From NCBI GenBank assembly GCA_043755865.1, contig JAYUSD010000154.1:9213-73212 (forward strand): a stretch of DNA of 64,000 nucleotides, read 5' to 3'. Positions 48,345 to 60,498 of this stretch are shown in pieces; within the stretch, counting starts at the first letter, position 1, and the number at the start of each line of letters is the position of its first letter. A model generated the notes under the pieces. The model did not search any database. It saw nothing but the letters and a program-made list of their open reading frames with translations, and was not told the DNA's origin. The DNA is from Variovorax sp. GTDB taxonomy: Bacteria > Pseudomonadota > Gammaproteobacteria > Burkholderiales > Burkholderiaceae_C. The position numbers were made by a program, and so were the translations under genes.

Positions 48345-49205
48345 CTAAAGCTCATATTTTTTGCCCAATGCAAGCAGATCAGGTGTGCCAATCAGCGCAT
48401 TGAGTTCGTCGAAGTTGATCATGCTGTTTTGCATGGCGAGGGTGCTGCCCTGCTGATGCAGGCTTTTGTAATAGTGCTGCAAAGTATGCGCCACAGCGCG
48501 GGCCGTGCCGCCTGGGAAGATCACGATTTTGAAGCCACACTCGCCGAGTTCGGTGGCGCTTTGGATCGGCGTTTTGCCGCCTTCCACCATATTGGCCAAC
48601 AGCGGGATGCGTTTGGCAAAGCGCTCGCAAGCAGCTTGCATTTGCTCAGGCGTGCGCAGGGCTTCGATGAAGAGGGCATCCACGCCGCACTCTAGATAAG
48701 CTTCTGCTCGATCAAGTGCGGCATCAAGCCCTTCGATAGCAAGCGCATCAGTGCGCGCCAAGATGAGCGTGCTCTCGCTGTGGCGGGCGTCCACAGCGGC
48801 ATTGAGTTTGCCGCACATCTCACCCGTGGAGACCACAGTTTTGCCGTCCAAATGGCCGCATCTTTTGGGAAAGCTCTGATCTTCGATTTGGATCATGGCT
48901 GCGCCCGCACGCTCGAAGCCGCGCACGGTGCGCTGCACATTGAGGGCGTTGCCAAACCCTGTGTCTGCATCCACGATCACAGGTGTGCGCACGCGCTCGG
49001 TGATGCGTGCGAGCGTGTCTTGCACCTCGGTGAATGTGGTGAGCCCGACATCGGAGCGCCCAAGCCGTGTGTAGGCAATCGAGGCGCCGGAGAGATACAG
49101 CGCCTCAAAGCCGGCTTGCTCGGCAACCAGAGCAGTGAGCGCGTCATACACGCCGGGCGCGAGCAGGGCGCTGGGTTGTTGCAAGCGTTGTTGAAGTGTT
49201 GTCAT
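48345..49205 (-). CDS. Isocitrate lyase/PEP mutase-family C-C lyase (PrpB/dimethylmalate-lyase-like)
   Basis: APGVYDAL, DADTGFG, IEDQSFPKRCGH and ARTDA; ATGA overlap with the upstream gene. Confidence 0.92.
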   Translation of the reverse strand: MTTLQQRLQQPSALLAPGVYDALTALVAEQAGFEALYLSGASIAYTRLGRSDVGLTTFTEVQDTLARITERVRTPVIVDADTGFGNALNVQRTVRGFERAGAAMIQIEDQSFPKRCGHLDGKTVVSTGEMCGKLNAAVDARHSESTLILARTDALAIEGLDAALDRAEAYLECGVDALFIEALRTPEQMQAACERFAKRIPLLANMVEGGKTPIQSATELGECGFKIVIFPGGTARAVAHTLQHYYKSLHQQGSTLAMQNSMINFDELNALIGTPDLLALGKKYEL

Positions 49206-50611
49206 GTGTTCACCATGCCAGCTGCCGCCTCGGCTGCTATTGCGCCGCCAGCGACTGCGCTGAGCAAGCCATTGCCAGATAAATAGCCCCAAACTTCGTT
49301 GCCCGATACGCCGCGCGCTGCGCCGCCAGCCGCGAGCAAATTGGGAAAGGGCTGGCCATTGCGCTGCAACACGCGGCATTGCGCATCAATATCCAGCCCG
49401 CCTTGGGTGTGAAACAGAGCGCCCGTGACCTTGACGGCATAGTACGGCGCATGCAATGCGCGTTTGGCTCGCGCAGAAGGTGTTGATACTGCATTTCTTA
49501 AGCCTTTTGGGCCACTGGCCGGCATAGAATATGCGCAGGATGCTATTAAATTCATAGTTTTGCATCCAATCAGTGCAGCCAGCGCCTCCACATCCGCACA
49601 GACCTTCACAGCACCGGCAGCTTCAGCTTCACAAAAATCAGGGAAGCTGCGGGCGAGTTTCAAAATCGGCGCATCAAAGACATTCCACGCCACGCCACCG
49701 GGCTGTGCGAGCACATGCACGGCCGCTTCAGAATAGCCTTGCGTCTCATCATGAAAGCGCTGGCCGTTTGCATTGACCTGCACGCCGCCTTCCATCATCA
49801 GCGCCCAGCTGATGAGCGCGCCTTGCGGAATCGCCCATGAGCCATGGCCTTGGTAGCCACCCAGATCGGCGAGGCTCGCTTGCAAAGCCTTGCCCCAAGC
49901 AATCGCACTGCCGTCGTTGCCTGCATGCCCTGCAAACAATGCATCCTTCATGTCGGGGAGCAGCTCGCGCACCATGTCTGCATTGCCGCCAAAGCCATTG
50001 CAAGCCAAGATGAGCGCATCGCAGCGCAGATGCTCCATGCTGTCGTCGGGGCGCTCATAGCCCACGCCCGTGATGCGCTGATCAGCATCTACCCAAAGCT
50101 CGCGCACGGTGGCTCGCGCGAGAATGTCTGCGCCGGCTCGTGTGGCCGCGCTTGCGAGCTGCGTTACCAAAGCCGCCCCGGTTTTTTGCGGCACAGCATG
50201 CATGCGCCGCACGCTGTGGCCGGGATACAAAAAGCCATCGAGCACAATGAATTGAAGCCCGTGCTGCGCTGCCAAGTGATCAATCACCAAGCCAATGCGT
50301 TGCGCGAAAGCAGCTACCAAGTGCGGCGCCGCTGTGCCATGCGCTTTGGCTTGAATGTCGTGTGCAAACTGCGCTGCGCTGTCTGATATGCCAGATTCGC
50401 GCTGCATGCGCGTGCCGGGCGCTGGAATGAAGCCAGACGATAAAGCGGTGGAGCCGGACGGCTGAGCATCGCGCTCAATCACCACACAATCAATACCTGC
50501 ATCGCGCAGCATGATGGCCGCAACCAGCCCGCATGCGCCTGCGCCGATGATGGCTACGGGCACATGCGGTGCTGCCTGCGGCGGGCATCCATGGCGAATA
50601 GTGGTATTCAT
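49202..50611 (-). CDS. FAD-dependent oxidoreductase (fumarate reductase flavoprotein / TcuA / KstD-like)
   Basis: IIGAGACG, GSTALSSG, LACNGFGGN, HTQGGL and YLSGNGLLSA. Confidence 0.88.
   Translation of the reverse strand: MNTTIRHGCPPQAAPHVPVAIIGAGACGLVAAIMLRDAGIDCVVIERDAQPSGSTALSSGFIPAPGTRMQRESGISDSAAQFAHDIQAKAHGTAAPHLVAAFAQRIGLVIDHLAAQHGLQFIVLDGFLYPGHSVRRMHAVPQKTGAALVTQLASAATRAGADILARATVRELWVDADQRITGVGYERPDDSMEHLRCDALILACNGFGGNADMVRELLPDMKDALFAGHAGNDGSAIAWGKALQASLADLGGYQGHGSWAIPQGALISWALMMEGGVQVNANGQRFHDETQGYSEAAVHVLAQPGGVAWNVFDAPILKLARSFPDFCEAEAAGAVKVCADVEALAALIGCKTMNLIASCAYSMPASGPKGLRNAVSTPSARAKRALHAPYYAVKVTGALFHTQGGLDIDAQCRVLQRNGQPFPNLLAAGGAARGVSGNEVWGYLSGNGLLSAVAGGAIAAEAAAGMVNT
49516..49558 (-). 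repeat. 43-bp dispersed element copy, in frame in the FAD oxidoreductase gene
   Basis: Reverse complement ACTAT GAATTTA ATAGC ATCC TGCGC ATATTCTAT GCCGGCCA. Confidence 0.9.
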
Positions 50612-50622
50612 GAGGGCGTTTG

Positions 50623-59625: not shown

Positions 59626-59649
59626 GAAGTGCTCCTGGGTTGAAAACGG

Positions 59650-59709
59650 TTGGTGAAAGGGTCGGTGAAAGGGTTGGTGAAAGATTTAGTGAAAGATTTA
59701 GTGAAAGTG
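59650..59709 (-). repeat. Five tandem 12-bp units (consensus NNCTTTCACYAA on the - strand) from the gntR stop towards the SBP RBS
   Basis: + strand reads TTGGTGAAAGGG TCGGTGAAAGGG TTGGTGAAAGAT TTAGTGAAAGAT TTAGTGAAAGTG. Confidence 0.9.
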
Positions 59710-60498
59710 GGCAGACAATTCTTTGCTGACCCAGACCTTGGCATCAATATTGCCAACGCGGGACAGTTGCATGACATATTCATATCGGTCTGGCCGATAC
59801 ATGCCATGCAGCCATTGCACAGGGCGGTCATTCACATCAAAAATCAATCGGCGCACAGCCAGCAGGGCGCTGCCCACGGCTATATCCAAATGCTGCGCGA
59901 GCTGCACATCGGCCAGCCGCGCGGAGATGGTTTGCTCGGCGCGCCCCACTTGCACGCCGGCTTCTTCCAGAAGTAGCAAAATCGGTTTCTTGCCCAATTC
60001 TTTTCGCCCAAAATGCGCGCCGATGGCTTTGGGGATGTAGGTGGTGATGTGGGAAAACGGGCCGGCTTCGGTACTGCGCACGCGTACGGCTTTTTGCACC
60101 GAGTCGCCCGTCGCAATTTGCAGCGCCTGTGCAATATCTTGCGATGCAGCGATGGTGCCCACATCCAGCACCTTGACCGATGTGGCCAAACCCATGGAGA
60201 CTAAGTTTTCAAGCAGGCCGGTGAGTTGCGCCTTGCGTGGCTGACCATCTTTGGCTTGAGACGCCGCGCCGGCCAGTGCGGCTTGGGTGGGCTGCGTGCC
60301 GCGCCCCGGTTGGCGGCTGATCAAGCCTTCTGCCGCGAGCTGCTCCAGCGCCCGCCGCACCGTCACGCGCGCCACGCCAAACTGCTGCTGAAACGCCAGC
60401 TCGCTGGGCAAACCCGCTTTAAATATTCCCTCGCGCAACTGCTCTCGCAAGACCAAATAGATTTGGTGGTACTTGGGCAGCGGCATGACAGCGGACAT
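59698..60498 (-). CDS. GntR-family regulator, HutC/UTRA subfamily
   Basis: LPSELAFQQQFGVARVTVRRAL...GRGT HTH; C-terminal UTRA-like AEQTISA...YRPDRY. Confidence 0.94.
   Translation of the reverse strand: MSAVMPLPKYHQIYLVLREQLREGIFKAGLPSELAFQQQFGVARVTVRRALEQLAAEGLISRQPGRGTQPTQAALAGAASQAKDGQPRKAQLTGLLENLVSMGLATSVKVLDVGTIAASQDIAQALQIATGDSVQKAVRVRSTEAGPFSHITTYIPKAIGAHFGRKELGKKPILLLLEEAGVQVGRAEQTISARLADVQLAQHLDIAVGSALLAVRRLIFDVNDRPVQWLHGMYRPDRYEYVMQLSRVGNIDAKVWVSKELSAHFH

Follow-up and report, generated by a model that had tools for sequence, protein, structure and literature searches.

A Variovorax operon for the probable catabolism of a carboxylated cyclic amide, with an exchangeable ring-opening module

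Introduction

Which compound is taken up and degraded by a run of twelve genes that joins an importer of the HAAT family to a cyclic amidohydrolase, a flavoprotein, a LeuCD-type hydro-lyase and a PrpB-like lyase? The question is raised by a stretch of 64,000 nucleotides (nt) from Variovorax sp. (contig JAYUSD010000154.1, positions 9,213 to 73,212), here called the window, in which these genes occupy positions 48345-60498. In the first-pass annotation of the window, a compound of the succinimide, maleimide or hydantoin type was proposed to undergo ring opening, then desaturation, hydration to a substituted malate and finally C-C cleavage. The analysis described here points to a GntR-controlled operon that probably serves to import a small carboxylated cyclic amide, most likely a five-membered imide, and to degrade it completely. 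The cluster can be described as an uncharacterised form of cyclic-amide catabolism to which a hydratase-lyase end module is attached. In the literature searched in full text, we found no description of the cluster, no account of bacterial catabolism of such imides and none of these clusters assigned to a pathway; an earlier assignment of orthologous clusters to a known pathway, which the first-pass annotation had named as fatal to its reading, was not encountered there. The homarine hom operon, which surfaced in the literature search, is unrelated.

A conserved operon

A check of the open reading frames (ORFs) in the window, with assignment by Pfam and NCBIfam, gave twelve co-oriented minus-strand ORFs spanning 60498-48345:

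59698-60498, minus strand: GntR-family regulator with a UTRA effector domain, HutC/PhnF-like (UTRA 1.8e-32, GntR 1.9e-15)
58390-59625, minus strand: HAAT-family periplasmic substrate-binding protein (Peripla_BP_6 2.3e-46)
57432-58316, minus strand: ATP-binding cassette (ABC) permease, LivH-type (BPD_transp_2 2.2e-37)
56464-57435, minus strand: ABC permease, LivM-type (Pfam; its ATG overlaps the LivH stop codon, ATGA)
55718-56485, minus strand: ABC ATPase, LivG-type (ORF; orthologs have ABC_tran and BCA_ABC_TP_C)
55011-55721, minus strand: ABC ATPase, LivF-type (ORF; orthologs have ABC_tran)
54018-55007, minus strand: Bug/TctC-family carboxylate receptor, an optional member (TctC 1.1e-71)
52746-54011, minus strand: LeuC/HacA-type large subunit of an aconitase-family hydro-lyase (Aconitase 1.9e-91)
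52153-52749, minus strand: LeuD/DmdB-type small subunit of the hydro-lyase (TIGR02087, 138 bits against a cut-off of 109)
50623-52113, minus strand: binuclear cyclic amidohydrolase of the allantoinase/hydantoinase/dihydroorotase type, 496 residues, predicted ring opener (NCBIfam, metal ligands)
49202-50611, minus strand: soluble FAD_binding_2 flavoprotein, TcuA-like dehydrogenase, 469 residues (FAD_binding_2 6.7e-49)
48345-49205, minus strand: lyase of the phosphoenolpyruvate-mutase/isocitrate-lyase family with the KRCGH motif, PrpB/Dml-like, 286 residues, predicted C-C cleavage step (Pfam, NCBIfam)

From gntR to the lyase gene, the junctions measure, in order, 72, 73, -4 (ATGA), -22 (+11 if a later ATG is used), -4, 3, 6, -4, 39, 11 and -4 nt, with the 4-nt ATGA overlaps falling at LivH/LivM, LivG/LivF, LeuC/LeuD and flavoprotein/lyase. 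Among species-representative genomes, 80 loci were recovered, which belong to Polaromonas, Rhodoferax, Ramlibacter, Caenimonas, Rubrivivax and Rhizobacter. In 39 of these (Polaromonas, Rhodoferax, Ramlibacter, Caenimonas and Rubrivivax), all ten core genes, that is, the operon minus gntR and the Bug gene, are present and collinear; the same holds for Caenimonas aquaedulcis. The initial description of twelve co-oriented genes with short or overlapping junctions is thereby borne out by coordinates, domain assignments and gene order. Only 25 of 53 loci have the Bug gene in its place between LivF and LeuC, so that the conserved unit comprises 11 genes. This arrangement is far beyond chance, and the cluster is a real operon conserved in freshwater and soil Comamonadaceae.

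Carriage of the operon is uneven. The amidohydrolase has hundreds of relatives at 86-96% identity in metagenomes and genomes of Comamonadaceae; in an even sample of 301 genomes of the family, an amidohydrolase ortholog is found in 19 and a flavoprotein ortholog in 34 (about 11%), and one genome of the same genus lacks both. These figures describe a patchy accessory trait. The trunk flavoprotein also occurs in Azospirillum, Sulfitobacter, Novosphingobium, Burkholderia and haloarchaeal plasmids. The genome that contains the window holds single copies of the amidohydrolase, flavoprotein and lyase genes, and a separate, housekeeping LeuC on contig C26 (32% identity to the operon LeuC). Among the cluster proteins, the binding protein and the amidohydrolase are the most conserved, at 88-90% identity to Caenimonas versus 65-83% for the others, as expected if both recognise the imported molecule; across orthologous loci, the binding protein is 81-95% identical.

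Two features lie immediately upstream of gntR:

60505-60534, minus strand: promoter-like site, TTGACA, 18-nt spacer, TAAGAT (10 of 12 consensus matches, the best site in the region)
60523-60542, minus strand: perfect palindrome TTGTCCTATTGACAGGACAA, likely GntR operator, overlapping the -35 hexamer of the promoter-like site

The promoter-like site, which is a consensus match only, has a -10 hexamer that stops 6 nt short of the gntR ATG. The palindrome occurs once in the 3.65-Mb genome to which the window belongs, is conserved in at least 25 orthologous loci, ~45 bp before gntR, and recurs upstream of gntR in a sister operon of Variovorax sp. PDNC026 that carries HyuAB genes. Related palindromic sites lie within the divergent promoter region of another sister operon, that of Burkholderia plantarii, which carries CE4 genes. 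We infer that the palindrome is the operator of a single, autoregulated transcription unit, bound by the GntR protein, which is 58-84% identical among orthologous loci and scores below every NCBIfam equivalog cut-off. No good second copy of the operator was found in the genome, and hence no extra regulon member, such as an unlinked amidase, was revealed.

None of the catabolic enzymes reaches an NCBIfam equivalog cut-off either, and the hydro-lyase subunits pass broad subfamily models only. Automated public names for these genes (dihydroorotase, allantoinase, 3-isopropylmalate dehydratase, branched-chain amino acid ABC transporter) would suit a chance juxtaposition of housekeeping paralogs from leucine, methylcitrate, pyrimidine and amino-acid-uptake functions, with no dedicated pathway behind it. 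Such an origin is contradicted by the collinear order kept across genera, the 4-nt overlaps, the private operator, the missed cut-offs, the presence in 19 of 301 family genomes with absence from one genome of the same genus, and the separate LeuC; we consider it extremely improbable.

Displacement of the ring-opening module

The amidohydrolase is a member of the binuclear cyclic amidohydrolases (HxH, carbamylated Lys, His, His and Asp as ligands), and its metal ligands, H72, H74, K164, H224, H282 and D355, are invariant in 83 cluster orthologs. The protein is 83-93% identical across genera. Its best NCBIfam match is allantoinase, and its nearest structure is 3hm7 (1.9e-38); its scores fall short of the specific equivalog cut-offs for allantoinase (224 bits vs 358), D-hydantoinase (177 vs 393), ErtD (187 vs 650) and pyrC_multi (180 vs 279).

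In seven loci of Comamonadaceae, on a megaplasmid of Variovorax sp. PDNC026 and in six genomes sampled from the family, the same position is taken by other genes. HyuB, HyuA and an isochorismatase-family cysteine hydrolase are encoded between LeuD and the flavoprotein, exactly where the amidohydrolase gene stands in the window, so that one window enzyme stands in place of three. The surrounding proteins are those of the window: in the two loci long enough to include it, the binding protein is 88-90% identical; LeuC is 71-78% identical, the lyase 73-81% and the flavoprotein 55-73%, and in Variovorax sp. PDNC026 the GntR regulator is 71% identical. The HyuAB proteins belong to the ATP-dependent hydantoinase/oxoprolinase family and are nearest to caprolactamase. 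In a further version, present on plasmid p1 of B. plantarii and in genomes G467 and G957, ring opening would fall to two PuuE-like CE4 hydrolases, again accompanied by a cysteine hydrolase. Beyond the Burkholderiales, the Alphaproteobacteria Azospirillum oryzae and Sulfitobacter pontiacus carry HyuAB and a cysteine hydrolase, the former with a HAAT transporter whose binding protein is 57% identical to that of the window, the latter with a TRAP transporter.

The enzymes downstream of the ring opener stay constant throughout. The signature residues of the flavoprotein (His256, Trp269, Tyr293, His401 and Tyr443) are identical in all versions, as are those of the lyase (Val207, Gly209, Gly210, Arg236 and Phe265, with pocket residues Phe179, Ile229 and Pro231). 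All Burkholderiales flavoproteins fall into a single clade (100/100) of a maximum-likelihood tree. In this clade, HyuAB versions branch first, and versions with the amidohydrolase, HyuAB or CE4 are intermingled; two amidohydrolase versions, for instance, have a HyuAB version as their sister (100/100). The interleaved tree, the constant trunk and the shared position together indicate that the ring-opening module was displaced repeatedly inside a constant operon. Three unrelated ring-opening systems have, on several occasions, come to serve the same trunk of flavoprotein, LeuCD and lyase, which is plainly non-orthologous displacement. As all three of these systems are known for cyclic amides, ring opening of a cyclic amide is a well-supported first step, and the in situ exchange of the ring opener on a retained trunk supports the four-step scheme put forward at first pass.

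More distant amidohydrolase homologs, from other Gammaproteobacteria (68, 55 and 48% identity), stand alone by unrelated genes and are uninformative on function. The most distant of them (L010; G023:C8, ~10676-12166; 48%) has lost three of the six metal ligands (H72N, K164Q and D355N) and is probably a non-catalytic relative.

The second hydrolase

The pairing of ring opener and cysteine hydrolase in the sister versions suggests that two C-N bonds of the ring can probably be hydrolysed, as would be true of an imide or a ureide. The displacement of the module narrows the chemistry to a ring of this kind that yields a vicinal diacid. The isochorismatase-family hydrolase is the candidate half-amidase of the HyuAB and CE4 versions; its sequences match RutB and BiuH weakly. 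The half-amidase expected of a cyclic-imide pathway is missing from the window and from the other loci of the amidohydrolase version, where no cysteine hydrolase, HyuAB or CE4 gene was found inside the cluster, the sole CE4-like match (in locus L047) lying at the locus edge. The first-pass statement that no second amidase is present is therefore correct for this operon and for the loci built like it, and wrong for the sisters, all of which have an isochorismatase-family cysteine hydrolase.

Three solutions can be envisaged for the version found in the window. The amidohydrolase may perform both hydrolyses, as enamidase does on its own substrate. Alternatively, the half-amide may be desaturated to a 2,3-disubstituted maleamate, from which the amine would be lost through the anhydride; 2,3-disubstituted maleamates readily lose their amine by this route. 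Finally, an unlinked amidase may remove the amide nitrogen.

The trunk enzymes

The flavoprotein had been described as fumarate-reductase/TcuA-like, of which the second half is the better fit. It scores below the cut-offs of the models for flavocytochrome c (204 bits vs 285) and TcuA (128 vs 369). Aligned with Shewanella Fcc3, it has Tyr293 in place of Arg402, Tyr443 in place of Arg545, Trp269 in place of Glu378 and Met273 in place of Arg381, positions that we take to be catalytic (Arg402), carboxylate-binding (Arg545) and part of the proton path (Glu378 and Arg381). Tyr293, Tyr443 and Trp269 are invariant in 64 orthologs and Met273 occurs in 56 of the 64, while the equivalents of Fcc3 His365 and His504 are kept. 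These replacements indicate that the flavoprotein is not a fumarate reductase. The same Gly-Tyr is found at the Arg545 position of four Burkholderiales proteins with TcuA-model scores above 740 bits, which places the site of the flavoprotein closer to TcuA, an enzyme that desaturates a substituted succinate. The likeness is incomplete: in the same four proteins, the Tyr of the Arg402 region is preceded by an Arg that the window flavoprotein lacks, and TcuA is without the His504 equivalent that the flavoprotein keeps. A KstD-like reading of the two Arg-to-Tyr changes, with action on a ring carbonyl, was dropped, as TcuA-model proteins share the Tyr at the Arg545 position.

The LeuC-like subunit exceeds the subfamily cut-offs of NF001614 (541 bits vs 385) and hacA_fam (430 vs 386), and the LeuD-like subunit that of LEUD_arch (TIGR02087). 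Neither subunit scores as part of the 3-isopropylmalate dehydratase of leucine biosynthesis (leuC 241 bits vs 560, leuD 46 vs 116), a function for which the second LeuC exists. The nearest structure to the large subunit is 4kp1 (3e-101). Its Cys motifs, IGACTG and CGACAG, are present and presumably supply the three ligands of a 4Fe-4S cluster; the GSSRE motif of LeuD, which we take to hold the catalytic serine, is present as well. The LeuD specificity loop reads PGHAMKHG, with A-M-K-H aligned to YLRT in the homoaconitase and YLVY in the isopropylmalate isomerase of Methanocaldococcus jannaschii. This loop presumably tells the two enzymes apart, the Arg26 position of HacB reading the carboxylate (carboxyethyl group) in homoaconitase. 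Among 70 sequences, that position is Lys in 33 and Gln in 37, and the next residue (the Thr27 position) is His in 59; Lys is also found there in the distant versions. The loop thus suggests a polar or anionic substituent on the substrate, not an alkyl group.

Two observations concern the same genes in particular genomes. In the window, a LeuD C-terminal tail of ~30 residues (52153-52250) aligns to no ortholog, matches stopping at ~152-165 residues; it contains an exact duplication with a 24-bp period, in which the 18-mer CATTCCGTTCGGGCTGAG occurs twice and encodes HSVRAE twice, and it has the look of a small insertion or duplication that arose recently at the end of the gene. In the CE4 version of G467 (L097, 16306-17744), the LeuC-like gene is split into two overlapping ORFs, one for each of the N- and C-terminal aconitase-domain halves, which could reflect a frameshift, a sequencing error or a pseudogene.

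The lyase, at 300 bits, remains below the prpB cut-off of 354. Among structures, it matches PrpB (1mum) at 4.9e-57, and the Dml of Aspergillus niger (3fa3, 3.8e-49) more weakly than the PrpB structures. KRCGH and the Mg ligands are retained, as are the counterparts of PrpB Arg158 and Glu188. In comparison with Escherichia coli PrpB, the residues Phe186, Leu234 and Pro236, which we assume to line the C2-methyl pocket, are kept as Phe179, Ile229 and Pro231, whereas Thr212 and Arg270, presumed to bind the distal succinate carboxylate, are changed to Val207 and Phe265, and EFG is changed to EGG. Val207 is found in 61 of 62 orthologs and Phe265 in all 60 that cover the position, and both recur in the distant versions. 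A kept methyl pocket together with the loss of Thr212 and Arg270 would imply a pyruvate product and a second acid that is larger than succinate or differently held. Compared with the methylcitrate cycle, in which PrpB works with AcnB/AcnD, the lyase is about as close to PrpB structures as to any other, retaining the motif, the Mg ligands and the methyl pocket; the differences are the score below the cut-off, the residue changes above and the lack of a linked prpC or prpD.

Taken together, the trunk resembles TcuABC of Salmonella, where a FAD_binding_2 dehydrogenase likewise turns a substituted succinate into a cis-alkene that is then hydrated by an aconitase-family enzyme, and where the Tyr at the Fcc3 Arg545 position is shared. 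This raises the prospect that the operon degrades tricarballylate, or some other plain tricarboxylate, in the form of its amide or imide, by TcuA, aconitase and isocitrate lyase chemistry to glyoxylate and succinate. The GY and RF-DE motifs that the flavoprotein has in common with proteins passing the TcuA model would suit such a substrate, and so would the cationic or polar residue of LeuD at the homoaconitase carboxylate-reading position. However, the TcuA score is far below its cut-off, neither TcuB nor TcuC is present, and the lyase combines a PrpB-type methyl pocket with the loss of Thr212 and Arg270, the presumed holders of the succinate carboxylate; moreover, housekeeping enzymes would handle cis-aconitate and isocitrate. 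A tricarballylate-type substrate is accordingly judged distinctly improbable.

Proposed pathway and substrate

The pathway proposed here, including its order of steps, the imide ring, the pyruvate product and the identity of each substrate, would run as follows. The compound would be imported by the HAAT ABC transporter, possibly helped by the Bug receptor where this is present. The binuclear amidohydrolase would open the ring and either remove the amide nitrogen too or pass on a half-amide that loses ammonia later. The TcuA-like flavoprotein would desaturate the resulting substituted succinate or succinamate to the cis-alkene, which the LeuCD-type Fe-S hydro-lyase would hydrate to a 2-methyl-3-substituted malate. 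The PrpB/Dml-like lyase would then cleave this product in a retro-aldol-type reaction into pyruvate and a second acid with a polar side chain. The ring would most likely be a substituted succinimide or maleimide bearing a carboxylate side chain. Searches of PDB sequences with the binding protein and the Bug receptor returned generic Leu/Ile/Val-binding and Bug structures only, with no clue to the ligand, and no TctAB partner for the Bug receptor was found within the operon.

Of the substrate classes named at first pass, the cyclic imide is favoured and the hydantoin appears less likely. The preference rests on the trunk: to our knowledge, enzymes of the TcuA, LeuCD and PrpB types act only on nitrogen-free vicinal diacids, and only an imide yields such a diacid after both hydrolyses, since a ureide leaves an amino acid for which no deaminating enzyme is present. 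Several points weigh against this preference. The operon contains no amidase, and the isochorismatase-family genes elsewhere in the genome are distant (at most 35% identical). A TcuB-like electron acceptor is likewise missing from the operon. One relative (L110, G836:C30) has the trunk and no ring hydrolase on its 11.6-kb contig. The ring openers themselves lean elsewhere, the families nearest to the amidohydrolase being ureide hydrolases (allantoinase, hydantoinase and ErtD), the CE4 proteins being PuuE-like and HyuAB being nearest to caprolactamase; hydantoin is the one substrate class known for all three ring-opener types, which favours a ureide.

These last points lead to a different substrate, a carboxylated cyclic ureide, in the form of a 5-substituted hydantoin or a dihydropyrimidine (for example hydantoin-5-acetate, hydantoin-5-propionate or a dihydroorotate analogue). 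It would be opened to an N-carbamoyl acid and, in the sister versions, decarbamoylated by the cysteine hydrolase, in analogy with N-methylhydantoinase and N-carbamoylsarcosine amidase. The three ring-opening modules do correspond to the three known hydantoinase/allantoinase types when set beside the creatinine/N-methylhydantoin route and the hydrolysis of allantoin by AllB or PuuE: the amidohydrolase has its best matches in allantoinase, ErtD and D-hydantoinase, the CE4 proteins are nearest to the allantoinase PuuE, and the pairing of HyuAB, from the hydantoinase/oxoprolinase family, with a cysteine hydrolase mirrors HyuAB and N-carbamoylsarcosine amidase of the creatinine route. RutB and BiuH, which the cysteine hydrolases match weakly, both act on ureido amides. 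In addition, the amidohydrolase has the Tyr of the 'KIFMFY' motif, which we take to be typical of hydantoinases and dihydropyrimidinases. On the other hand, decarbamoylation would leave an alpha-amino acid, and there is no transaminase, no ammonia-lyase and no amino-acid oxidase recognisable as such to take it further; ureide catabolism has no equivalent of the downstream enzymes, and we know of no trunk enzyme type that acts on amino or ureido acids. All curated equivalog cut-offs are missed by wide margins, and the version in the window lacks a carbamoylase, yet its binding protein is 88-90% identical to those of versions that have the cysteine hydrolase. We regard a ureide as an unlikely substrate.

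For the imide, one specific identity can be suggested, albeit tentatively and with doubt: the operon and its HyuAB and CE4 sisters might form a bacterial route for monopyrrole imides from oxidised chlorophylls, haems and bilins, such as hematinic acid and its dihydro form. Hematinic acid is 3-methyl-4-carboxyethyl-maleimide, and the dihydro form derives from the reduced ring D of chlorins. On this proposal, the imide would be opened and the TcuA-like flavoprotein would desaturate the dihydro form. The dialkylmaleamate would lose ammonia spontaneously via the anhydride, or else the amidohydrolase would be bifunctional; either way of losing ammonia would explain how one enzyme can replace a ring opener and an amidase. 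LeuCD would hydrate methyl-homoaconitate, and the lyase would release pyruvate and glutarate. The carboxylate-linked transporters, the Lys/Gln-His loop of LeuD, the methyl pocket and enlarged second pocket of the lyase, and the glutarate-type CoA-transferase, acyl-CoA dehydrogenase and electron-transfer flavoprotein (ETF) genes of a variant described below would all fit these intermediates. More generally, the traits of the operon agree with an imide that bears one methyl and one carboxyalkyl group, as hematinic acid and its dihydro form do. These oxidation products of haem, bilins and chlorophylls occur in plants and herbivores (PMC7318184). Should such a tetrapyrrole-derived imide prove to be the substrate, the pathway would explain what becomes of some of the carbon and nitrogen in degraded chlorophyll and haem; otherwise, the operon would still represent a new catabolic route for an environmentally common cyclic amide. 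Cultured carriers exist for the amidohydrolase version (Caenimonas aquaedulcis, C. sedimenti HX-9-20, Ramlibacter cellulosilyticus USB13 and Rubrivivax albus ICH-3), the HyuAB version (Variovorax sp. PDNC026, Azospirillum oryzae KACC 14407 and Sulfitobacter pontiacus) and the CE4 version (B. plantarii KACC 18964). With these carriers at hand and a shared binding protein and operator, a ligand screen or an induction assay is practical.

Comparison with known systems

The cyclic-imide pathway of Blastobacter sp. A17p-4 reportedly consists of an imidase and a half-amidase that feed the tricarboxylic acid (TCA) cycle. Likened by description, this pathway and NicF follow the logic proposed here: an imide is opened, the half-amide hydrolysed and the diacid passed to central metabolism. 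The resemblance is closest in the sister versions, where PuuE/CIH-type CE4 hydrolases are joined by an isochorismatase-family hydrolase of the fold family of NicF, the maleamate amidase of aerobic nicotinate degradation. By contrast, the window uses a binuclear amidohydrolase and no half-amidase, and the trunk of flavoprotein, LeuCD and lyase is foreign to the known imide pathway.

The tail of nicotinate fermentation in Eubacterium barkeri (enamidase, the 2,3-dimethylmaleate hydratase DmdAB and the 2,3-dimethylmalate lyase Dml), compared by family, has three enzyme families in common with the window, and their reactions follow one another in the same sequence: a ring amidohydrolase, a LeuCD-type hydratase for a substituted maleate and a PrpB-type lyase that yields pyruvate and an acid. 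A compound of the nicotinate or pyridone type, namely a lactam or enamide of a partly reduced N-heterocycle, could be considered as substrate. An enamidase-like enzyme would hydrolyse its ring, spontaneous hydrolysis of the enamine would release the ammonia, and a DmdAB/Dml-like tail would follow. The match of the amidohydrolase, the LeuD/DmdB subfamily (138 vs 109 bits) and the PrpB/Dml-like lyase to the families of this tail speaks for it. An enamidase-like reaction would also explain why no second amidase is needed in the window, HyuAB is nearest to a lactam hydrolase, and one variant cluster contains a class-A flavin monooxygenase. Yet the four enzymes that intervene in E. barkeri are absent here, no homologs of hydroxymethylglutarate dehydrogenase or dehydratase, of the B12 mutase or of methylitaconate isomerase being found in any version seen, whereas the cluster does have a TcuA-like flavoprotein; a molybdenum hydroxylase is not linked to it. 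A lactam would have no need of the second, cysteine hydrolase of the sisters, and enamide opening leads to an oxo-acid instead of the maleate-type compound that LeuCD would hydrate. The polar LeuD loop (Lys/Gln-His) suggests a polar substituent in place of the methyl group of the E. barkeri intermediates, and the hosts differ too, being Comamonadaceae, which we take to be aerobes, and other Pseudomonadota. A lactam or enamide is quite improbable on this evidence.

Accessory genes and transporters in variant operons

Returning to the imide pathway, a few variants carry additional genes that fit unsaturated dicarboxylate intermediates and a dicarboxylate end product, each in few genomes. In six loci (L033, L034, L035, L040, L044 and L046), a gene for a maleate-cis-trans-isomerase-like protein (4fq5, 2.5e-12) lies between LeuD and the amidohydrolase; the protein keeps the first catalytic Cys and lacks the second. 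In one of these (L034, 6988-9963), an oppositely oriented class-A FAD monooxygenase gene and a second Bug receptor gene stand beside it. In Sulfitobacter, the hydrolase operon is headed by a tautomerase-family gene. A maleate-isomerase-like protein and a tautomerase are expected around unsaturated or isomerisable acids and so agree with the desaturation and hydration steps of the scheme.

The CE4 version of B. plantarii KACC 18964 is located on a conjugative plasmid (p1, NZ_CP066800.1; L102, 14652-37947) between IS6 and IS481 transposases. The lyase gene is followed by genes for a porin, the beta and alpha subunits of ETF, an acyl-CoA dehydrogenase and finally a CoA-transferase, whose best model is succinate-glutarate CoA-transferase (542 bits vs a cut-off of 750). 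The whole looks like a mobile catabolic island. An acyl-CoA dehydrogenase gene 70-73% identical to that of the island adjoins gntR in three loci, where it is otherwise surrounded by DUF218, RND efflux and LysR genes; the adjacency is therefore treated as weak. Across the versions, the transporters recruited are of the HAAT, TTT, TRAP and aromatic-acid:H+ MFS types, which taken together point to a carboxylate on the imported ring.

In the relative without a ring hydrolase (L110), the order GntR-LeuC-LeuD-flavoprotein-lyase follows a different HAAT transporter, an SDR gene and an AtuA-family gene, and the trunk may there be fed from a nitrogen-free precursor. Locus L055 shows the second Bug gene and the spacing of the isomerase-bearing loci with no isomerase-like match, and may belong with them. 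In a metagenome-assembled genome of Polaromonas (L012, 12957-14785), a 2-kb insertion between flavoprotein and lyase holds a TspO/MBR-family gene on the opposite strand and two small genes. TspO is a tetrapyrrole-binding family; this single case may be a coincidence.

Flanking and intergenic features of the window

The intergenic region between gntR and the binding-protein gene is filled by 5.3 tandem copies of a 12-bp repeat (plus-strand consensus AAAGGGTTGGTG, 59644-59707), which stop ~9 nt before the likely ribosome-binding site (AGGAG). Downstream of the lyase gene, at a distance of 139 nt and on the same strand, lies a uridine kinase gene (47567-48205), which is not conserved beside the cluster in other genomes. 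Upstream of the operon and divergent from it (61006-63079) are a further Bug receptor gene and an ORF that, judged by eye, encodes a putative NAD-binding dehydrogenase.

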